NCBI GenBank assembly: GCA_044448905.1
Contig: JBIOHJ010000001.1
Location: 1-61,282 of the forward strand
DNA length: 61,282 bases
Direction: 5' to 3'
Source: Bacteroidia bacterium
Lineage (GTDB): Bacteria; Bacteroidota; Bacteroidia; AKYH767-A; OLB10
The translations under genes were made by a program, and so were the position numbers. Below the pieces are notes generated by a model, which was not told where the DNA came from, did not search any database, and saw only the letters and a program-made list of their open reading frames with translations. Below are positions 3,715-61,131 of the stretch, piece by piece. How positions within the stretch are numbered: position 1 is the first letter of the stretch; every line of letters starts with the position of its first letter.

Positions 3715-4401
3715 TCACCTCCCCACCACCACACTCACCTCATCGCTGGCAATTCCAACTTCAATATCATCTACCACATAAATACCTATATATTTCCACA
3801 AAGCAATCCTTTTTTCTTCGGGTAATTTATACTTGTCAATAAAAGTGGTTCGGGTTAAGCGCTTTAAAAATTTCATGCCGTTGCCATCATCGCGGTTCAC
3901 ATACAGGTTCATACCATGCGTATTGTATTTGTTATAGCTGATTTCAGGCCTCCCCAAATCGGGCTTAATTTTTAAAACTGCTTTCAGCGCAGCAAAATCC
4001 TTAACGAAATCAGCCCCGATAATACCTAAATCCTCACCTATGGCTTCGGTATAATGAATGCTTCCTTTCATACGCTGCACCATTCCGCTTATTATGCCGA
4101 AAATACCTGAAGGAACTGCTGCTGGCGCAGCCGGCAATGTAAGCACCGGTACATCACTTGCATTGCCTCCTGGCAAACCAAACATCAGCTCTTTCCGGAA
4201 AGCCGTCATGCTTTTGCTGAACGACCGCACCATTTCAATCGTATCCATTGCATGTTTCAGCATAGTATAGTAATCCTTAACTTCTTGGGCTTCGGTTGGC
4301 AAAATCATAAGAACACTTGCATACGTTCCGATTTTATCGCTGAAATTTTTCAGCCATGCGAGGCGCTTCTTATTGCTTTTCGGGAAATAATGTTTACGCA
4401 T
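3715..4401 (-). CDS. hypothetical protein (no signal peptide)
   Basis: 228-aa ORF with ATG start. Convergent with 3005-3706 (stops 8 nt apart). The tandem array lies upstream. Confidence 0.6.
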   Translation of the reverse strand: MRKHYFPKSNKKRLAWLKNFSDKIGTYASVLMILPTEAQEVKDYYTMLKHAMDTIEMVRSFSKSMTAFRKELMFGLPGGNASDVPVLTLPAAPAAVPSGIFGIISGMVQRMKGSIHYTEAIGEDLGIIGADFVKDFAALKAVLKIKPDLGRPEISYNKYNTHGMNLYVNRDDGNGMKFLKRLTRTTFIDKYKLPEEKRIALWKYIGIYVVDDIEVGIASDEVSVVVGR

Positions 4402-4409
4402 CGTTTTAA

Positions 4410-4417
4410 TAGTTTTG
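4410..4417 (+). promoter_or_regulatory. Bacteroidota-type -7 promoter box TAGTTTTG pointing into the repeat array
   Basis: Perfect match to TAnnTTTG on the + strand, just outside the start codon of the divergent gene 3715-4401. Confidence 0.45.
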
Positions 4418-4510
4418 ATTTACCCCATGAACGTTTAAAGGCATTAATTCATTGTATTTTCTCTTAAAAAAATGTTTTTTCGGGCTTACATCAATTGTTT
4501 TATTGAGCCA

Positions 4511-4770
4511 AGCAGATTTTTCAGTTACCGGATCATTTGCCCCTGTTGCAGGGGCAAGCTTTTCTATGACCGAATCATTTGCCTCTGTTATGGAGGCAAA
4601 CTTTTCTATAGCTGGATCATTTGCCTCTGTCATGGAGGCAAGCTTTTCTATGACTGAATCATTTGCCTCTGCTATCGGGGCAAGCTTTTTAATGACCGGA
4701 TCATTTGCCTCAATGGTAGGGGCAAGCTATCCGATGGTTCCATCATTTGCCTAGATAACAGAGGCAGATT
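4511..4770 (+). repeat. 42-bp tandem repeat, about 6 units, each with an internal hairpin
   Basis: ATCATTTGCC recurs at 4532, 4574, 4616, 4658, 4700 and 4742, an exact 42-nt period. Hairpin TTGCCCCTG-TTG-CAGGGGCAA in unit 1; TTGCCTC...GAGGCAA or GGGGCAA in later units. Confidence 0.95.
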
Positions 4771-4825
4771 ACGCATTGAGTGGATAGTCTGTTTTAGTGA
4801 TTGGAAAGTTCCCTAACTTGACTTT

Positions 4826-4927
4826 AAAATCTGATTCGGGGCTTGGGAAATCTGTTACCGTAACTGAAAAATCTTCACCGGGAACTAAAAAATATCCTCC
4901 ATGAATTCTTGGAAATTATCCGATACC
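4826..4927 (-). repeat. about 5 degenerate 21-bp units, in inverted orientation relative to the 42-bp array
   Basis: AAATCT-type motif starts at 4827, 4848 and 4869, with weaker copies near 4889 and 4913. The reverse complement shares TGATTCGG and CAGTTAC with the left units. 4860-4874 is a perfect inverted copy of 4514-4528. Confidence 0.6.
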
Positions 4928-4986
4928 TGCGCAACTAGGTTGATTGTTATTTAAATCCGGAATTCGAAATCCGCAGTCCGAAATTC

Positions 4987-6171
4987 TCACATATAATTCG
5001 GGTACCGCTTCACATGCACATTCTTCACCAGTTCTCCCAGGCGCCTTTTCAGTTCATCAATGTTTTCTTTTCGCACAGCCGAAATAAAAACACCCGGCTT
5101 GTTTTCTTTGGCAATCCACGATTTTTTCAAATCATCCAGCGAAAGATTTTCTTTGGTGTGCGGTGTTAAATCGTCATGCTCTTTTTCAGTGAAACGGTAG
5201 GCATCTATTTTATTGAATACTAAAATAGCTGGCTTATCAGACGCAGCAATATCAACTAACGTTTGGTTTACCACGTTAATCTGTTCTTCAAAATTAGGAT
5301 GCGATATATCCACCACATGCAAAAGAATATCGGCTTCGCGCACTTCATCCAAAGTGGACTTGAATGATTCGACTAAATCGTGCGGCAGCTTGCGTATAAA
5401 CCCAACCGTATCCGAAAGCAGGAACGGAATATTTTCCAAAACTACTTTTCTAACGGTGGTATCCAATGTTGCAAACAATTTATTTTCGGCAAACACATCG
5501 CTCTTGCTCAGCAAATTCATAATGGTACTCTTACCCACGTTAGTATATCCTACCAATGCAACACGCACAATATTCCCTCGGGACTTTCGCTGCTGGAAGT
5601 TTTGTTTCTCAATTTTTTTTAATTCTTCTTTAAGGTGAGCCAGCTTATCGCGTATAACCCTCCGGTCAGTTTCAATTTCAGTTTCACCCGGTCCGCGGGC
5701 GCCAATTCCACCGGCTTGTTTTTCCAGGTGCGTCCACATACCTGTAAGCCGGGGCATGAGGTACTTGTATTGCGCAAGCTCCACTTGTGTTTTGGCTGTT
5801 GCCGTACGTGCACGCTTTGCAAAAATGTCGAGGATAAGATTGGTGCGGTCAACCACCTTTATCCCAACCACTTTTTCAATATTTCGTATCTGCGAAGGCG
5901 ATAGTTCATCATCAAAAACAGCAAGGTCAATTTTATTTTCTTTGATGAACGCAGCAATTTCATTCAGCTTACCCGAACCTACAAACGTGCGAGGATCGGG
6001 ATGCTCTAATTTCTGGATAAATTGTTTTTTAGTTTCGGCTCCTGCTGTCAGCGTCAAAAATTCAAGTTCATCCAAATATTCCTTCGCCTGCTCCACCGGC
6101 TGGTCTTTTGTAATCAACGCGATGAGAACTGCGGTTTCCTGTTTTTTAGTATTGTGATGTGATTTCTGCAC
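4987..6171 (-). CDS. hflX: GTPase HflX
   Basis: 394 aa. G1 motif GYTNVGKST, DTVGF, NKID. HflX-type N-terminal domain. The annotated start is GTG, so the exact start is uncertain. Confidence 0.9.
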   Translation of the reverse strand: MQKSHHNTKKQETAVLIALITKDQPVEQAKEYLDELEFLTLTAGAETKKQFIQKLEHPDPRTFVGSGKLNEIAAFIKENKIDLAVFDDELSPSQIRNIEKVVGIKVVDRTNLILDIFAKRARTATAKTQVELAQYKYLMPRLTGMWTHLEKQAGGIGARGPGETEIETDRRVIRDKLAHLKEELKKIEKQNFQQRKSRGNIVRVALVGYTNVGKSTIMNLLSKSDVFAENKLFATLDTTVRKVVLENIPFLLSDTVGFIRKLPHDLVESFKSTLDEVREADILLHVVDISHPNFEEQINVVNQTLVDIAASDKPAILVFNKIDAYRFTEKEHDDLTPHTKENLSLDDLKKSWIAKENKPGVFISAVRKENIDELKRRLGELVKNVHVKRYPNYM

Positions 6172-56002: not shown

Positions 56003-56833
56003 TTAGCTGCTATTTGACAAAGCATTTTTCTTCACCACCACAGCCGAAACATAAATACTTACTTCATACAAAAGGAACAGGGGAATAGCTACCAGGAGCT
56101 GGCTGGTAATGTCGGGCGATGGAGTAATCAGTGCTGCAACAATTAAGTTAACCACCATGGCATGCCTGCGGTACCTGCGCATGAACTGCGGAGTGATTAA
56201 CCCGATTTTGGAAAGGAAATAAACTACGATGGGTAATTCGAAAACGATGCCCGAAGCAAAGGTGAGGATGGTAACAGTAGAGATGTACGAATCGAGGTTA
56301 ATTTGATTTTTCACTTCGGTGCTTACCTGGTAGCTTCCTAAAAAGTTTATTGACATGGGGCTTATAATAAAATAGCCGAATAAAACCCCCGTAAAAAAAA
56401 GTATTGACGCGAAAAATACAATGCCTGTCGAATAGGATTTTTCTTTTTGTGTTAACGCGGGTTTAATAAACCGCCATAGCTCCCACAATAAATATGGAAA
56501 GCCTAAAACAATGCCGGTTACGATGGCAACCCAAACATGCAGGGAAAACTGCCCCGTCATTGAAATGTTGATTAGCGTAAACGGAACTTCGGTAATGCAT
56601 ATATCAATAGAAAATTTTTCGCTAAGCCAGCACAGGGCCCGATAGGTTGGAAAATGCGGATTGCGGGGCCCGAAAATAACGGTGTCGAAAATGAAACTCT
56701 TATTAATGAATGCAACAATGGCTATGGTAACAACGGCTAATACCGAACGTACCAAATGCCAGCGCAACGCCTCGAGATGATCGAGGAACGACATTTCGGT
56801 ATTGGGATCGGCTTTTTTGAAAAATCGGGACAT
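56003..56833 (-). CDS. tatC: twin-arginine translocase subunit TatC
   Basis: MSFLDHLEALRWHL N-terminal signature, 6 TM helices. ATG at 56833 preferred over the TTG-extended ORF that runs into the heptamer repeats. Confidence 0.9.
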   Translation of the reverse strand: MSRFFKKADPNTEMSFLDHLEALRWHLVRSVLAVVTIAIVAFINKSFIFDTVIFGPRNPHFPTYRALCWLSEKFSIDICITEVPFTLINISMTGQFSLHVWVAIVTGIVLGFPYLLWELWRFIKPALTQKEKSYSTGIVFFASILFFTGVLFGYFIISPMSINFLGSYQVSTEVKNQINLDSYISTVTILTFASGIVFELPIVVYFLSKIGLITPQFMRRYRRHAMVVNLIVAALITPSPDITSQLLVAIPLFLLYEVSIYVSAVVVKKNALSNSS

Positions 56834-56980
56834 AAGTAATAAGTAATGACCAATGAGCAATGAGCAATGAGCAATGAGCAATGACCAATAATCAATGAGC
56901 AATAATCAATGAGCAATGAGCAATGACCAATGAGCAATGAGCAATGAGCAATGTTCAATGTTCAATAGTCAATCTATAAT
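56834..56980. repeat. 21 tandem heptamers (GAGCAAT and variants) abutting the tatC start codon
   Basis: Read directly: AAGTAAT x2, GACCAAT x3, GAGCAAT x10, AATCAAT x2, GTTCAAT x2, AGTCAAT, CTATAAT. No phase breaks. Confidence 0.95.
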
Positions 56981-57150: not shown

Positions 57151-59211
57151 ATGGGTTTCAGAAAATCAAATCAACAGGGCAAACCGGGAGTGAAATTTCT
57201 TTTAAGAATTCGCCAGAGAACTGCAATCAGGTTAGTAACGGCAACTTTAGGCTTTGCGGGATTATTAACCGTTTCAATTTTTGTATCAATCTATTTCGGG
57301 CCCAACAAAAAAGCTTTTGCAACAACTAATGAAACGTTGAGCACGGGTTCGTTTATTATTAATATGGGCATTACTCCTCAAACCTATGCGAACGGAATGA
57401 AGCCGTACGGAATGATTTACGATCTTATCATAAAATATACCGTCCCGATAAAATGGGTTATTGAACCGACTAAAGCTAAAGACGGAACTGATTTTACTTA
57501 CAACGGAACCAATTATAAAGGAGGCCCTTTTATTATACAGGCTGAATTTATTACTTCCACAGTGGCTTCGCGCATCTCGTATTGGCAAACTCAAGGGGTA
57601 CAGGGAGTATATACAACGGATGCCATAACCGTCCCCGTTTATACAACGCTTACGAGCTTTCCGAATCTTATGATTGATTCGTTATCGTCAAATCAAAATA
57701 TTGCTGTTACTTATTTCAATAATGCAGGCATCCCCCCGAGCGCATATGGAATTGGCAAGCCCGCGAGCTTAAACGCATGTCATGATGTGTGGGTAAATCC
57801 TCATGGCGATCCACGATGGGCCGATTACTCTTACCTGTATAATTTCGTTACGGTTCAAAAATCGTATATCTGGCTGCAATGCCATTCGGGAAGTGTTATG
57901 GAAGGCTGTTATAATTACCTTCTGCCAACCCAGCAATTAAATTATTTATCTACTAAAGGGCTAAAGTGCTGGAAAGGCGGGGGCGGTTTCAATTGCGATG
58001 CTTTAATTACCGAATCGCATGCAACGTCATCGACCGCGCCTTATACTTATTATTATCCCTCAGATCCCATCATGCAATTTATGGGTAACATGTCGAACCC
58101 AACGCAGCATGGTTCGGAACAATGGTACCAACCCATGTCGACCGGGGCATGGAGGGGAACTACCAAGAGGCTGGTAACTACCGCTACAGGCGCATCGCCT
58201 AATGAAGGCGTGCTGATGGCTTACGGCCCCGGTTATGGTACTGCCGGAAACGGGCTGGTTATGTACACGGCAGGGCATGATTTGAATTCGGGTGGCGGAA
58301 CAGTTTCGGACTGGGTTGCCGCACAACGTTCGTTTTTGAACTATTGCTGGATTGCCGGGCAGGCAAAGGTGCCATTATTTGTTTCTTACTCCATACCGGT
58401 AACGTTTGTGGGTTTGCGAAGACAAGCGGTTTCGGCAACGGTATCGAGCGGCACACCACCTTATACTTACCTGTGGACTTCGACAATAGGTGGCGAATTT
58501 GTGGATCCAACGGCTGCATCAACCTATTTTATTCCTCCCAATCCTGACCCGGGCCCCATATCGGGAGTGCTGCAATGCATTGTTACGGACGCATGCGGAC
58601 GAAGAAATTTTATTTCTCAATTTATATCAATTACTAACAGCCCATTACCCGTAACCCTCAGCTCGTTTGAAGCTAAAGCGCAAAATAATAAATCGGTATT
58701 GCTTAGCTGGACAACTGTTGCCGAAGTGAACAATGATTATTTTACGATTGAACGTTCGGCTGACGGAAAGCATTTTACAGAGTTGACCCGCGTGGATGGC
58801 GTTGGCAACAGCACGGTTTTGCATAAGTATTCGTACACAGATAATTCGCCTTACAGCGGAAAATCTTTTTACCGCTTAATGCAAACCGATTTTGACGGTA
58901 CATGTGTATTATTTAAAATTGTTCCGGTAACGATTAAAGCAAATGACGAAACCAAAAGCACTGTAACGGTTTCGCCCAACCCGTTTAGTGATGAGTTTAC
59001 AGCTCAGTTTGAATGTTCCGAAAAGGAAGAAGTTACTATTAACCTGATCACGGCTAACGGGATAACAGCTTTTTCGGATAAAATAATTGCCGCTGAAGGA
59101 AATAACCTGTACCGGTTTAACGCGGCAGGTAAAATTCAACCCGGCACTTATCTTTTGAAAATAGGCAACAGCAGTACTGTTTTTGCAACCAAGAAGGTTA
59201 TTTGCCGGTAG
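57151..59211 (+). CDS. large secreted hypothetical protein with T9SS C-terminal domain
   Basis: 686 aa. N-terminal hydrophobic anchor, Ig/fn3-like module (LSWTT...YFTIERSADG...YRL). C-terminal VSPNPFSDEF...GTYLLKI sorting domain. Confidence 0.7.
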   Translation: MGFRKSNQQGKPGVKFLLRIRQRTAIRLVTATLGFAGLLTVSIFVSIYFGPNKKAFATTNETLSTGSFIINMGITPQTYANGMKPYGMIYDLIIKYTVPIKWVIEPTKAKDGTDFTYNGTNYKGGPFIIQAEFITSTVASRISYWQTQGVQGVYTTDAITVPVYTTLTSFPNLMIDSLSSNQNIAVTYFNNAGIPPSAYGIGKPASLNACHDVWVNPHGDPRWADYSYLYNFVTVQKSYIWLQCHSGSVMEGCYNYLLPTQQLNYLSTKGLKCWKGGGGFNCDALITESHATSSTAPYTYYYPSDPIMQFMGNMSNPTQHGSEQWYQPMSTGAWRGTTKRLVTTATGASPNEGVLMAYGPGYGTAGNGLVMYTAGHDLNSGGGTVSDWVAAQRSFLNYCWIAGQAKVPLFVSYSIPVTFVGLRRQAVSATVSSGTPPYTYLWTSTIGGEFVDPTAASTYFIPPNPDPGPISGVLQCIVTDACGRRNFISQFISITNSPLPVTLSSFEAKAQNNKSVLLSWTTVAEVNNDYFTIERSADGKHFTELTRVDGVGNSTVLHKYSYTDNSPYSGKSFYRLMQTDFDGTCVLFKIVPVTIKANDETKSTVTVSPNPFSDEFTAQFECSEKEEVTINLITANGITAFSDKIIAAEGNNLYRFNAAGKIQPGTYLLKIGNSSTVFATKKVICR

Positions 59212-59435: not shown

Positions 59436-60383
59436 TTACACTTCTTCGCCATCATTTTCTTCTTCGGCACCTCCGCCAGCCGGGGCTCCTTCTTTTAACA
59501 TGGCAATGGTAAGCTTGGTAGTTTCACCGCTTATGACATTAAAATTTTGCATTGCCGGCTGGTAACCCGGCAGGTTTGTGGTAAGCGAGTGCGCGCCTTC
59601 GGTAAGATTTTGTACAAAGCTGTTGCCCAGCCCGGAGCTGCGCCTGTTAATGCTGCCGTCAACTTTAATTTTTATATGCGCAACGGGCTTGCCGGTTGTT
59701 TGGTCAACAAATTTTGCCTGCAGCGCGCGTTTCTGGGTGGGGCTGTTAACAATAACGCGCGCGTTAAAATATTGCGTATAAAAATCGGGGTTGGTGATGC
59801 GAAACAGCTCCATGCCGCCATCAATTTGTTCCTCGAGAAGCGTAGTGGTTTGGTCAAACAGGGGTCGAAGCTGCTCGGTGGCTGCGCTGGTTTCGCTCAC
59901 TGCTGCGCGCGGCTTGCCAATGTATGCTGCATAATCAGTAATGGCTGTACCCAATGCCGTAGTCATGGGTCCCGTTAACCCGAAAGGCAAAACCGCAACT
60001 GCATTGGCAACAGCCGCTTCATGAACCTGTACAGCCATGCCCGATAATTCGTTATCGCGCGCCTTTGTAAGTTCGGTGCGTGTAAAATTTACTATTTGAA
60101 GCAGCTCGCGGTTGTTAACCTGTGAAGCATAAAATCCAATAATTTTTGCTGCGGCAAAAGTTTGCTCTTCCAAACTCTGTCTTTTATTTTGCTTATCCTC
60201 TGCAACACCTGTTTTGTCTGCGTCCTGTATGTCACGCAGGTCTGCAATGGCATCTATATTTGTTTCAAAGGTGTTAACGGCTGCAGTAAACGGTACATTG
60301 GCTGTCCATACAGCATTGTGAGTTTGCAACACATCATCGGTTGCCTGGTACATGTTAAGGATGTCTTCCTGGGTTTTGTTCAT
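59436..60383 (-). CDS. hypothetical protein: helical N-terminal region plus C-terminal carboxypeptidase-regulatory-like beta-sandwich and acidic tail
   Basis: 315 aa, no signal peptide. C-terminal HIKIKVDG...LTEGAHSLTTNLPGYQP...ISGETTKLTIAM resembles CarboxypepD_reg folds. Confidence 0.6.
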   Translation of the reverse strand: MNKTQEDILNMYQATDDVLQTHNAVWTANVPFTAAVNTFETNIDAIADLRDIQDADKTGVAEDKQNKRQSLEEQTFAAAKIIGFYASQVNNRELLQIVNFTRTELTKARDNELSGMAVQVHEAAVANAVAVLPFGLTGPMTTALGTAITDYAAYIGKPRAAVSETSAATEQLRPLFDQTTTLLEEQIDGGMELFRITNPDFYTQYFNARVIVNSPTQKRALQAKFVDQTTGKPVAHIKIKVDGSINRRSSGLGNSFVQNLTEGAHSLTTNLPGYQPAMQNFNVISGETTKLTIAMLKEGAPAGGGAEEENDGEEV

Positions 60384-60445
60384 GATAGTTTAATTTTTAA
60401 GGTTTGAAATATATTTTATTGAAATTGATTTAACAGATGAATGAA

Positions 60446-60690
60446 TTGCTTAACCCGATGATGCGATTGCTTAACCCGATGATGCGATTGCTTAACCCGA
60501 TGACGCGATTGCTTAACCCGATGATACGATTGCTTAACCCGATGTCGCGATTGCTTAACCCGATGACGCGATTGCTTAACCCGATGACGCGATTGCTTAA
60601 CCCGATGACGCGATTGCTTAACCCGATGATGCGATTGCTTAACCCGATGACGCGATTGCTTTAACCGATGACATCATTGCTTAAAATCAA
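60446..60690 (+). repeat. 21-bp tandem repeat TTGCTTAACCCGATGNNNCGA, 10 near-perfect plus 2 degenerate units
   Basis: Unit starts run from 60446 to 60677 in exact steps of 21. Among the 10 good units only positions 16-18 vary (ATG x3, ACG x5, ATA, TCG). Enclosed by ATG-ORF 60437-60664 (LLNPMxR x10). Confidence 0.95.
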
Positions 60691-60784: not shown

Positions 60785-61030
60785 TTATTTATTTTTAATG
60801 CCTAAACATACCCGCTTTATTTTTTTAATCCCGCTATGGCTGTAACCCGACTGCGAATTAATGTCTTTGTATTTTAAATTCTCACCAATTCCTTTTTCGG
60901 CTTGCTGCAAATTGTGCTCATGCAAAAGCGAACTCCAGGTAAAACGCTCATCACCATAATAGAATTCAAATTCGCGCACCGTTTCAATGGGAACATGCTG
61001 TAAAATGTGGTTTAGCTTATGACGGTTCAT
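60785..61030 (-). CDS. small hypothetical protein
   Basis: ORF 60785-61093. Internal ATG at 61030 (MNRHKLNHIL...) preferred. No recognisable motif. Confidence 0.3.
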   Translation of the reverse strand: MNRHKLNHILQHVPIETVREFEFYYGDERFTWSSLLHEHNLQQAEKGIGENLKYKDINSQSGYSHSGIKKIKRVCLGIKNK

Positions 61031-61131
61031 GACTCCAACCAAAACAGTATGTAAATATAAAAAAAAGTGAAAAGGAAAAAGTTCGCCTGACAAAATAGGA
61101 TTATAAGGAGGTTGCTTAAACTAAAGGTTGA

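Follow-up and report, generated by a model that had tools for sequence, protein, structure and literature searches.

We find that a tandem array of 42-nt units in a Bacteroidia bacterium is a real and most probably non-coding element associated with the gene downstream of it, and that arrays with a period of 21 nt or a multiple of it (21n) recur upstream of homologues of this gene in several bacterial phyla. The array lies in contig JBIOHJ010000001.1, of which the whole 61,282-nt stretch analysed is here called the window. The pairing of 21n arrays with an uncharacterised protein family is apparently undescribed, and no match emerged when the literature was searched for tandem arrays of 21 bp or 21 nt located upstream of genes; we consider the pairing to look like a good lead. 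Our preferred reading, which we hold tentatively, is that of phased DNA binding sites that serve the downstream gene as its cis partner, with an array transcribed into RNA as the close rival.

The main array occupies 4515-4783 on the − strand and consists of six 42-nt units, opened by ATCATTTGCC at 4532, 4574, 4616, 4658, 4700 and 4742, plus a half unit at 4515-4531. Tandem Repeats Finder (TRF) independently gives a period of 42 nt (4.8 copies, 81% matches, no indels, at 4527-4728), in agreement with the exact spacing reported in the initial annotation. On the gene strand the unit reads approximately GGTCATAGAAAAGCTTGCCTCCATAACAGAGGCAAATGATCC, and each unit contains a palindrome, TTTGCCTCTG(N3)yrGAGGCAAA, together with a smaller one, ATGA(N5)TCAT. 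The most decayed units are those farthest from the gene (4700 and 4742). Degenerate 21-nt units that resemble the reverse complement of the main unit are found at 4826-4927 on the − strand, where AGATTT recurs at 21-nt spacing (4873, 4852 and 4831, − strand). A check for MITE- or REP-like dispersal showed the 42-nt unit to be confined to the array: it occurs nowhere else in the window (0 expected by chance) and in none of the other fetched loci.

Each unit does carry a hairpin, as had been proposed. On the + strand a 10-pair helix is paired in 91.7% of 60 cells, compared with at most 55% when the partner is slid, and RNA folding of the array gives z-scores of −5.8 (+ strand) and −5.1 (− strand). 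The compensatory stem changes that had been cited in support of these hairpins are at chance level. Both sides change at a single stem pair, columns 11-21 (UA three times, UG twice and CG once), and 391 of 500 shuffles reach the same covariation value. The wobble pairs that had been taken to indicate a + strand RNA fare better in part: G.U exceeds A.C by 12 cells to 1 in the window stem (a count from the alignment), which favours the + strand, but these G.U cells stem from about five positions common to copied units. No described RNA family had been recognised in the array, and Rfam searches agree. Rfam 15 returned only chance-level miRNA-type matches for window positions 4200-5200 at E<=10, and only tRNAs for 20 related loci at the gathering score and nine at E<=1.

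The genes around the array, namely hflX (4987-6171), gene 3715-4401 and a called 75-aa ORF (4406-4633), all lie on the − strand, which places the array directly upstream of gene 3715-4401 on the same strand, a point that the initial annotation overlooked. A unique AT-rich tail (4402-4514, − strand) separates the array from the start codon of this partner gene. The upstream neighbour of the array is hflX; no regulator gene adjoins the array in the window, and no recombinase gene is among its called neighbours. The partner gene encodes a 228-aa protein (family 1) that is helical over residues 10-125 and forms an FN3-like sandwich over residues 143-227. Genome scans for this gene with a single sequence came back empty, and alignment-based scans recovered homologues; the family comprises 1,736 clusters at 50% identity (E<=1e-10). 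One distant member (25% identity) comes from the cultured Flavobacterium macrobrachii an-8 (L029), on a contig that stops 199 nt upstream of the gene.

Whether homologues of the neighbouring gene ever carry such an array had been set beforehand as a test of the element, and the outcome is strongly in its favour. Of 105 distinct homologue loci that were eligible, 73 have a tandem array at least 80 bp long whose period is 21 nt or a multiple, and the share rises to 48 of 54 for relatives that are at least 40% identical. These loci represent Bacteroidota, Planctomycetota, Acidobacteriota, Ignavibacteriota and Verrucomicrobiota, plus one Paceibacterota MAG. In the full set of 126 distinct homologue loci we counted 117 tandem arrays of that minimum length; 97 of them have a 21n period, and 88 of these 97 lie no more than 900 nt upstream of the family gene (90.8 kb in total). 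The other nine are spread over the remaining 446.5 kb, giving an upstream density about 48-fold higher. Some arrays have periods of 83-85 nt. Unit sequences are wholly different between loci; within an array, units are near-identical (81-96% throughout), with scattered point differences and no spacers. Copy number varies between close relatives, from 186 bp in locus L070 to 237 bp in L071 and from 309 bp in L006 to 278 bp in L064. Clustering of neighbouring ORFs revealed no conserved neighbour gene, and upstream neighbours are heterogeneous. A standalone LytTR gene sits just upstream in three of eight Bacteroidia loci, L002 and L143 among them, and most loci have no such neighbour; a tblastn search detected no LytTR homologue anywhere in the window.

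The window contains a second array of the same class, at 60445-60684 on the − strand, made up of 11.4 copies of a 21-nt unit (ATTGCTTAACCCGATGACGCG on the + strand) with 92% matches. It lies upstream of gene 59436-60383 (− strand) and stops 62 nt short of its ATG. This second partner gene encodes a 315-aa protein (family 2), likewise with helical and sandwich domains: the helical part spans residues 1-208, and a transthyretin/CarboxypepD_reg-like sandwich follows at residues 221-295. Arrays of 21 or 42 nt are present in 5 of 5 distinct family-2 loci, where a small HTH-like ORF precedes the array; in the window this ORF lies at 60785-61093. Profile-profile comparison (hhalign) found no homology between the 315-aa and 228-aa families (probability 0.2%), and the 21-nt period is thus independent of which family the gene belongs to. 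A heptamer array, (AATGAGC)n, is also present in the window; AATGA is common to both kinds of array, and the 7-nt period is not helically phased.

Searches of Pfam, NCBIfam, PHROGs and PADLOC returned nothing for either protein family beyond the C-terminal sandwich. Fold searches with both families matched only FN3 and transthyretin-like domains, leaving the helical halves unmatched, and a profile search against PDB sequences gave no match. No relatives are present in IMG/VR, which gives no support to a phage origin. Isoelectric points range from 5.0 to 9.4 in family 1 and are about 5 in family 2; the encoded proteins of both families do not look like nucleic-acid binders.

Two further elements had been assigned to the locus, a divergent promoter belonging to the array and an inverted repeat bracketing it. 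The promoter motif TAGTTTTG is present at 4410-4417 on the + strand, but the window contains 68 occurrences of TAnnTTTG, or 0.55 per kb per strand, and the −33 partner of the box, TTTG, is absent from the 35 nt upstream, so we consider the box not significant. It also points against the conserved orientation of the array to its gene, and we leave it out of the element. The inverted repeat is confirmed, with 22-nt arms on the + strand (left, 4514-4535; right, 4853-4874) that are 86% complementary and share a perfect 15-nt core (AGATTTTTCAGTTAC at 4514-4528, matched at 4860-4874). Flanking inverted repeats are missing from most related loci; the bracketing repeat is thus not a family feature, and the invertible segment suggested earlier is unlikely. 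Inside the bounded segment there is no TAnnTTTG, and the sole sigma-70-like match (9/12, at 4801-4830) is at shuffle level.

In the DNA-level reading, the 42-nt array would be the cis partner of gene 3715-4401, with array and gene forming a two-part module conserved across phyla. Unit sequence would turn over fast through slippage and homogenisation while the period remained locked at 21 nt or multiples of it. Two turns of B-DNA span 21 nt, and phased sites could all lie on one face of the helix, where a small sequence-specific regulator would bind them cooperatively and set transcription of the downstream gene. Each 42-bp unit in the window would then be a palindromic site for a dimer, and changes in copy number would tune the output. 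We infer from the patterns above that the array acts at the DNA level and that some protein binds it, and such a regulator is our candidate for that protein. We count in favour of this reading the 48-fold association, the family-independent period, the lack of a coding signal (below), and the Acidobacteriota loci, which carry a sigma-70-type promoter and a conserved leader between array and gene. To these we add the LytTR and HTH-like genes beside some arrays, the partner proteins' dissimilarity to nucleic-acid binders, and the inconsistent wobble strand: pooled across loci, the gene strand has 91 G.T against 70 A.C, and no strand is consistently favoured. Counted against it are the missing adjoining regulator or LytTR gene in the window, the heterogeneous neighbours, and the AATGA shared with the 7-nt heptamer array. 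The promoters that read into Planctomycetota arrays, the enriched stems with common loops and the strand bias of ATGA weigh in the same direction, and these also bear on the RNA alternative.

That alternative holds that the array is an RNA-level element, transcribed with or beside the gene, whose units, hairpins in the window, could bind protein, undergo processing or influence how stable the leader is or how it is translated, in a layout like that of type III toxin-antitoxin RNA arrays or multi-site sponge RNAs; taken by itself we judge it somewhat unlikely. One Planctomycetota clade (L059, L075, L076 and L067) has a gene-strand sigma-70 promoter that reads into the array, a perfect 12/12 match placed 31-46 nt upstream of it or, in L067, an 11/12 match placed 73 nt upstream. 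Other Planctomycetota loci have a near-perfect Shine-Dalgarno sequence and mini-ORFs just upstream of the array. These signals suggest that the arrays there are transcribed with the gene. Compared with the Acidobacteriota, where the promoter sits between array and gene, the position of the array relative to the mRNA appears not to be fixed. Among 72 consensus units, 33 have a stem of 5 bp or more, and the best stem averages 4.35 bp, compared with 3.47 in shuffles; the window array itself folds much better than shuffled sequence, whichever strand is taken. However, about one third of related arrays have a stem no better than chance, and array period is independent of hairpin content: hairpins are enriched yet not universal, and are not a defining property of the array class. 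Within arrays we counted 22 compensatory cells against 226 A.C or other mismatches. ATGA is present in 29 of the 72 consensus units when they are read on the gene strand and in 15 when they are read on the other, and lies in the loop region in 13 arrays, compared with three for TCAT. Several unrelated stems enclose a common (G)GATGAC or AATGA loop, a pattern that looks more like recognition of a single-stranded hairpin. A CsrA-sponge function for GGAUGA loops was considered and rejected, with GGA absent from Bacteroidota and most Acidobacteriota units and Rfam empty. The G.U-favoured strand in the window is antisense to the gene, whereas the orientation of the class is that of the gene strand, and an RNA element must also accommodate an exact 21-nt period common to two unrelated protein families, the acidic family-2 proteins and the lack of any Rfam match.

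A protein-coding array is quite unlikely in our view. It would be a present or recent − strand protein of 7- or 14-residue repeats (...EANDSVIEKLASMT...), translationally coupled to gene 3715-4401, with a window copy that is either truncated (75 aa) or a pseudogene with three nonsense codons. The − strand frame is indeed open across the whole gap (about 4917 to 4406) apart from three stops, each one substitution away from the sense codon of other units. In the tail the array frame stays open until a TAA 4 nt before the partner-gene ATG; in the window, L002 and L145 it has 0-1 tail stops, where the other frames have 2-4. In 8 of 8 Bacteroidia loci, gene callers place an ORF of 97-156 aa across the array, and two of these ORFs overlap the gene start by 8 nt; the period is a multiple both of 3 nt and of 7 codons. 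Yet a stop-free repeat unit yields an open frame automatically. ORFs also run through the array on the + strand, as the initial annotation stated, and across arrays an open frame exists on the gene strand in 55 of 72 and on the opposite strand in 46 of 72, leaving 17 without a gene-strand frame; the periods of 83-85 nt fit no better. The most variable codon phase is the third position of the open frame in 19 of 53 arrays (23.7 expected), and in L002 third positions vary least. Tail stops overall are not depleted (1.82 against 2.14, p=0.42), and tail peptides differ among the window, L002 and L004. The 75-aa ORF of the public record, which starts inside the array, had no match but itself in a search of 5.8 billion proteins, and we take it as probably spurious, a call that the repeats made possible. 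With no coding signature across arrays, the array is most likely not protein-coding, as the initial annotation had argued. We also considered TGA readthrough or selenocysteine insertion in Planctomycetota, where TGA is the sole frame-closing stop, and rejected it, because TGA and CGA alternate, other frames remain open, and the stops in other phyla are TAA and TAG.

Two explanations remain. The array might have no function of its own, being a slippage-prone VNTR, a MITE-like remnant or a segment that inverts between the arms of the 15-bp inverted repeat. The copy-number differences between close loci, the decay of gene-distal units and the real inverted repeat are what such a history would leave, but it has little probability given a 48-fold enrichment before one gene family across phyla at a fixed period. 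The confinement of the unit, the inverted repeats missing at most loci, the absence of a recombinase nearby and of a promoter inside the bracketed segment likewise speak against it. Least probable of all, and very improbable in our estimate, is a + strand function, either as tandem intrinsic terminators or as a short antisense RNA from near TAGTTTTG, that would insulate convergent or antisense transcription around 3715-4401. There are five terminator-like sites (a hairpin plus CTTTTCTAT) on the + strand, where shuffles give 1.0 +/- 1.0; the + strand fold of the array is 12 kcal/mol more stable than that of the − strand, and the G.U count favours the same strand. Against this, no + strand gene ends at the array, the promoter box is at chance level and without a −33 element, related arrays lack terminator-like units on the opposite strand, and the gene-array pairing and 21-nt period are left unexplained.

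If the pairing is functional, it would provide a first handle on a large unannotated family spanning several phyla, and the second family with the same upstream signature extends it beyond the 228-aa proteins. The signature is searchable, as a 21n-period tandem array of about 200 bp within about 130 nt of a start codon, and gene callers now turn such arrays into spurious repeat proteins of 75-156 aa. The combination of a strict two-helical-turn period with free unit sequence makes the competing hypotheses easy to discriminate.

Among known systems, type III toxin-antitoxin loci (ToxIN, CptIN and TenpIN), as reportedly described by Blower et al. in 2012, have a similar layout. These have 2-6 copies of a 34-46-nt repeat and a terminator between array and toxin gene. 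As in those loci, tandem direct repeats of family-typical length and variable sequence stand immediately upstream of a single protein gene on the same strand, in a stand-alone module found in variable contexts and often several times per genome. Here, in contrast, units are 21 or 42 nt and number about 5-12, the gene strand showed no terminator-like site between the array and its gene, and the protein is modelled as helical plus FN3 rather than as a ToxN/AbiQ/CptN/TenpN-type endoribonuclease. A bolder extension, which we regard as unlikely, is a new two-component system in which the locus-specific 21-nt array, as RNA or DNA, would be the specificity partner of the helical-plus-beta-sandwich protein or of a dedicated small regulator. 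Its logic would resemble that of type III toxin-antitoxin or TIGR systems, and it would extend to five or more phyla and to two or more protein families, with members in the thousands. Plasmid centromeres and iterons offer another parallel. F sopC consists of twelve 43-bp repeats, each with an inverted repeat, and iterons are 19-22 bp long; both share with our arrays units of about 20 or 40 bp, with a palindrome for a dimeric binder, beside a partner gene. Unlike them, the array here is chromosomal, next to hflX, with no ParB, SopB or Rep-like protein, several paralogous modules occur per genome, and the partner carries an FN3 sandwich.

Operators of small DNA-binding proteins are a further parallel. 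A LytTR box is 9 bp long. LytTR regulators bind direct repeats separated by 12 bp (PMC6193735), and BldC-type multimers bind direct-repeat operator arrays (PMC5859096). These are cooperatively bound direct repeats on one helix face, as our sites would be. For LytTR sites, the 12-bp separation added to the box length gives a 21-bp period like that seen here. The known sites, though, have 2-4 repeats and ours about 5-20, and for LytTR, the window has no LytTR gene and its unit misfits the published box by eye. In TIGR arrays a unit measures about 36 nt and combines two conserved repeats with two variable spacers of 9 nt, and the partner protein has a Nop domain (PMC12045711). These arrays resemble ours in their regular short units, stem-loop arrays included, beside a small protein gene, and in being poorly caught by CRISPR tools; our arrays have no spacers, and the partner proteins show no sequence or fold match to Nop. 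TAACTGA heptamer repeats occur in intergenic regions of Beggiatoaceae, Cyanobacteria and Bacteroidetes (PMC4679880). Like our arrays they are short non-coding tandem repeats directly before start codons, with proposed regulator binding and stops in several frames in their case. They have a 7-nt unit of one common sequence and no link to a gene family, whereas the arrays described here have 21- or 42-nt units, are locus-specific and are tied to particular gene families.

The array in the window belongs to a conserved class of 21-nt-period arrays, apparently undescribed, in which every array is tied to the gene on its downstream side. Between hflX (4987-6171) and gene 3715-4401, six 42-nt units lie in exact register at 4532, 4574, 4616, 4658, 4700 and 4742, as the initial annotation had described, and TRF reports a period of 42 with 4.8 copies, 81% matches and zero indels at 4527-4728. 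The flanking genes are all on the minus strand, placing the array directly upstream of gene 3715-4401, and unit decay grows with distance from this gene. When searched across the window, the 42-nt unit was confined to the array. Upstream of the main units, 4826-4927 holds degenerate 21-nt units (AGATTT on the minus strand at 4873, 4852 and 4831) that indeed look like the main unit in reverse complement. This resemblance accounts for the 15-nt inverted repeat said to bracket the array, which is perfect (4514-4528 and 4860-4874); the idea of an invertible segment is unsupported as put forward. A 14-nt direct repeat (AAATCCGGAATTCG / AAATCCGCAGTCCG, 4953-4980) lies right after the hflX stop codon, before the degenerate units.

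Using a 19-homologue alignment of the 228-aa product of gene 3715-4401 (family 1) as query, we retrieved 52 loci from genomes and 80 from metagenomes, two apiece from several genomes, and ran TRF over 900 nt upstream of each homologue. The loci come from Bacteroidota, Planctomycetota, Acidobacteriota, Ignavibacteriota and Verrucomicrobiota, plus one Paceibacterota MAG. Their upstream arrays have a period of 21 or of 42, 63, 84 or 105 nt, and typically comprise 8-12 units of 21 nt, with their end 45-130 nt short of the start codon. In 126 distinct loci totalling 537 kb, we counted 117 arrays of at least 80 bp, 97 of them with a period of 21 nt or a multiple; 88 of the 97 fall in upstream windows (90.8 kb) versus nine in the other 446.5 kb, a density ~48-fold higher upstream. 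The initial annotation had named homologues that never carry such an array as evidence against its reading, and we found the opposite: 73 of 105 eligible family 1 loci have one, and among relatives at 40% identity or more to a query, 48 of 54 do. Unit sequence is unrelated from locus to locus and among paralogues of one genome, and near-identical loci differ in copy number.

The 228-aa product has no match in Pfam, NCBIfam, PHROG or PADLOC. In its AlphaFold model (pLDDT = 87), residues 10-125 form a helical N-terminal half and residues 143-227 an FN3-like sandwich; structural neighbours were found for the sandwich only. Clustered at 50% identity, the family comprises 2,886 clusters at E<=1e-3, 1,736 at E<=1e-10 and 440 at E<=1e-30, with nearly all members ~230 aa long and no relatives in IMG/VR. 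A second array in the window spans 60445-60684, with 11.4 copies of a 21-nt unit at 92% matches, and its end is 62 nt upstream of gene 59436-60383 on the minus strand, whose 315-aa product is helical over residues 1-208, followed by a transthyretin/CarboxypepD_reg-like sandwich. We detected no homology between this protein (family 2) and family 1, and family 2 homologues carry upstream 21/42-nt arrays in 5/5 distinct loci; the 21-nt period is thus independent of protein family. Ahead of their arrays, family 2 homologue loci have a small ORF (76-92 aa) that matches HTH domains weakly, and the order small HTH-like ORF, array, gene is common to loci L137-L141. In the window, a small ORF (60785-61093, minus strand) likewise lies upstream of the array.

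A third repeat, a heptamer array (AATGAGC, 15.6 copies, with variants AATGACC, AATAATC and AATGTTC), occupies 56838-56960; its neighbours are the minus-strand tatC (likely start near 56797) and, on the plus strand, a T9SS-cargo gene (57151-59211). The AATGA motif, enriched in the 21-nt arrays, recurs in this heptamer array, and 21 nt equals three heptamers.

The hairpin noted in each 42-nt unit of the window is real: its helix of 10 pairs closes a 3-nt loop, 91.7% of plus-strand cells pair versus at most 55% when the 3' partner is slid, and both strands are far more stable than shuffles (z = -5.8 and -5.1). Its supposed compensatory stem changes fared differently. Only one base pair is altered on both sides, a value matched by 391 of 500 shuffles, so this argument carries no weight with six related units. 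Counted from the unit alignment, 12 G.U cells versus one A.C make the plus strand the better hairpin strand, as had been argued from wobble pairing, but these cells trace to about five positions inherited through copying. On the plus strand, the units are also similar to intrinsic terminators (5 sites versus 1.0 +/- 1.0 in shuffles). The promoter box proposed at 4410 (TAGTTTTG) exists, but TAnnTTTG occurs 68 times in 61 kb and TTTG is absent at the -33 position, so we exclude the box from the element.

In consensus units of the whole class, the mean length of the best stem is 4.35 bp, compared with 3.47 bp for shuffles; stems of at least 5 bp occur in 33 of 72 units, ten units reach p<=0.05, and about a third have chance-level stems only. 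Pair states within arrays (955 consensus Watson-Crick, 91 G.T, 70 A.C, 156 other and 22 compensatory) reveal no clear strand and little compensation, and the arrays have no Rfam matches. The commonest 4-mer is ATGA, found in 29/72 units on the strand of the downstream gene (gene strand) and 15/72 on the opposite strand, against 8.3 units for an average 4-mer. In several Planctomycetota arrays ATGA sits in the loop of unrelated stems, such as GTACG, CTGAC, CCTGAT, CGGGT and CCCCCTCA.

Position relative to promoters differs between phyla. One Planctomycetota clade has 12/12 consensus promoters on the gene strand, 31-46 nt ahead of the array, and in L067 an 11/12 match is found at 73 nt. At 10-130 nt ahead of the array, eight other Planctomycetota loci (L007, L008, L009, L010, L014, L062, L072 and L078) carry a near-complete anti-Shine-Dalgarno complement (AAAGGAGGTGATTT) and, after this complement, mini-ORFs of 2-14 codons (MRFAG*, MRVTG*). 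Judged by these elements, Planctomycetota arrays downstream of a promoter or Shine-Dalgarno-type element are predicted to be co-transcribed with the gene. Immediately ahead of the family gene's Shine-Dalgarno sequence, these loci have a short hairpin (e.g. GCCCTTAGAAGGGC). Acidobacteriota loci have a sigma-70-type promoter (TTGACA-like, 17 nt, TATAAT-like) between array and gene, ~160 nt upstream of the gene (L030, L034, L035, L037, L038, L051 and others), with the array 250-700 nt further upstream. A conserved leader of ~60 nt (TTGGGTCTGCCGGAGGCTCCC...GGCGACC) follows this promoter; its outer stem displays apparent covariation (GTCTGC...GCAGAC in L038). Unmatched in Rfam, this leader may be a 5' motif that is so far undescribed. 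Between the 21-nt array and the promoter, the Chloracidobacterium-like loci L030 (2330-2508) and L035 (about 2400-2650) have heptamer and 35-nt repeats rich in G (GGGACGA, GAGTGAC), their GGG runs spaced like G-quadruplex motifs.

Because the two-helical-turn period is common to unrelated gene families, is independent of hairpin content and is kept whether the array precedes or follows the promoter, our tentative first choice is that the array would act at the DNA level, as a phased row of putative binding sites. That it acts instead as RNA is a close second, only a little less likely in view of the signs of transcription in Planctomycetota and the enrichment of hairpins in the class. A coding origin within the Bacteroidia subclade is a minor rival. 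Beyond the array, its frame stays open as far as the gene start in the three closest Bacteroidia loci (window, L002 and L145), and gene callers predict ORFs, 97-156 aa long, at each of the eight Bacteroidia loci. The public record for the window lists a 75-aa ORF (4406-4633, minus strand) whose start lies inside the array and whose stop is 4 nt short of the next ATG; the frame of this ORF, open across the whole hflX-gene gap apart from three stops, reads as 14-residue repeats (EANDSVIEKLASMT) preceded by 7-residue repeats, and the ORF product has zero homologues among 5.8 billion proteins. Among 72 distinct arrays, however, a frame is open on the gene strand in 55 (46 on the opposite strand), leaving 17 closed in every gene-strand frame. 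Differences between units lack codon periodicity, the most variable phase being the third position of an open frame in 19/53 arrays (expected 23.7), and stops in the unique tail between array and start codon are not depleted overall in the array frame (1.82 versus 2.14, p = 0.42). The window array is almost certainly non-coding. In L072 (2670-2882), TGA is the sole stop closing all three gene-strand frames, every 21-nt unit reading as ATG, five codons and TGA; in L062 (241-460), TGA and CGA alternate in one frame at the same unit position. Readthrough or recoding was weighed for such Planctomycetota arrays and set aside in view of this TGA/CGA alternation, open alternative frames, and the TAA and TAG stops of other phyla.

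If the phased DNA array is bound by protein, the encoded proteins are poor candidates, since they are not basic (pI ~5 for family 2, 5.0-9.4 for family 1). Given the length of a LytTR box and a 12-bp separation, LytTR direct-repeat operators span ~21 bp per repeat, like the class period. A standalone LytTR gene immediately precedes the array in 3/8 Bacteroidia loci, and the window contains no LytTR homologue. Direct repeats separated by 12 bp are targets of LytTR regulators (PMC6193735). No conserved gene adjoins the module. Bacteroidia modules of both families adjoin genes with a T9SS C-terminal sorting domain (Por_Secre_tail; L002, L003/L004, L137-L141, L143, L146 and window 57151-59211), often directly downstream on the same strand. 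In one Bacteroidia relative (L003/L004, 1733-3154), the opposite strand immediately ahead of the array carries a reverse transcriptase gene (RVT_1, 287 aa) together with HTH_3-type and 86-aa genes. In four Planctomycetota loci, among them L078 (2035-3297), the family gene is followed by a gene for a 417-465-aa protein built of ~11-residue repeats (AVTTAKIADGA...).
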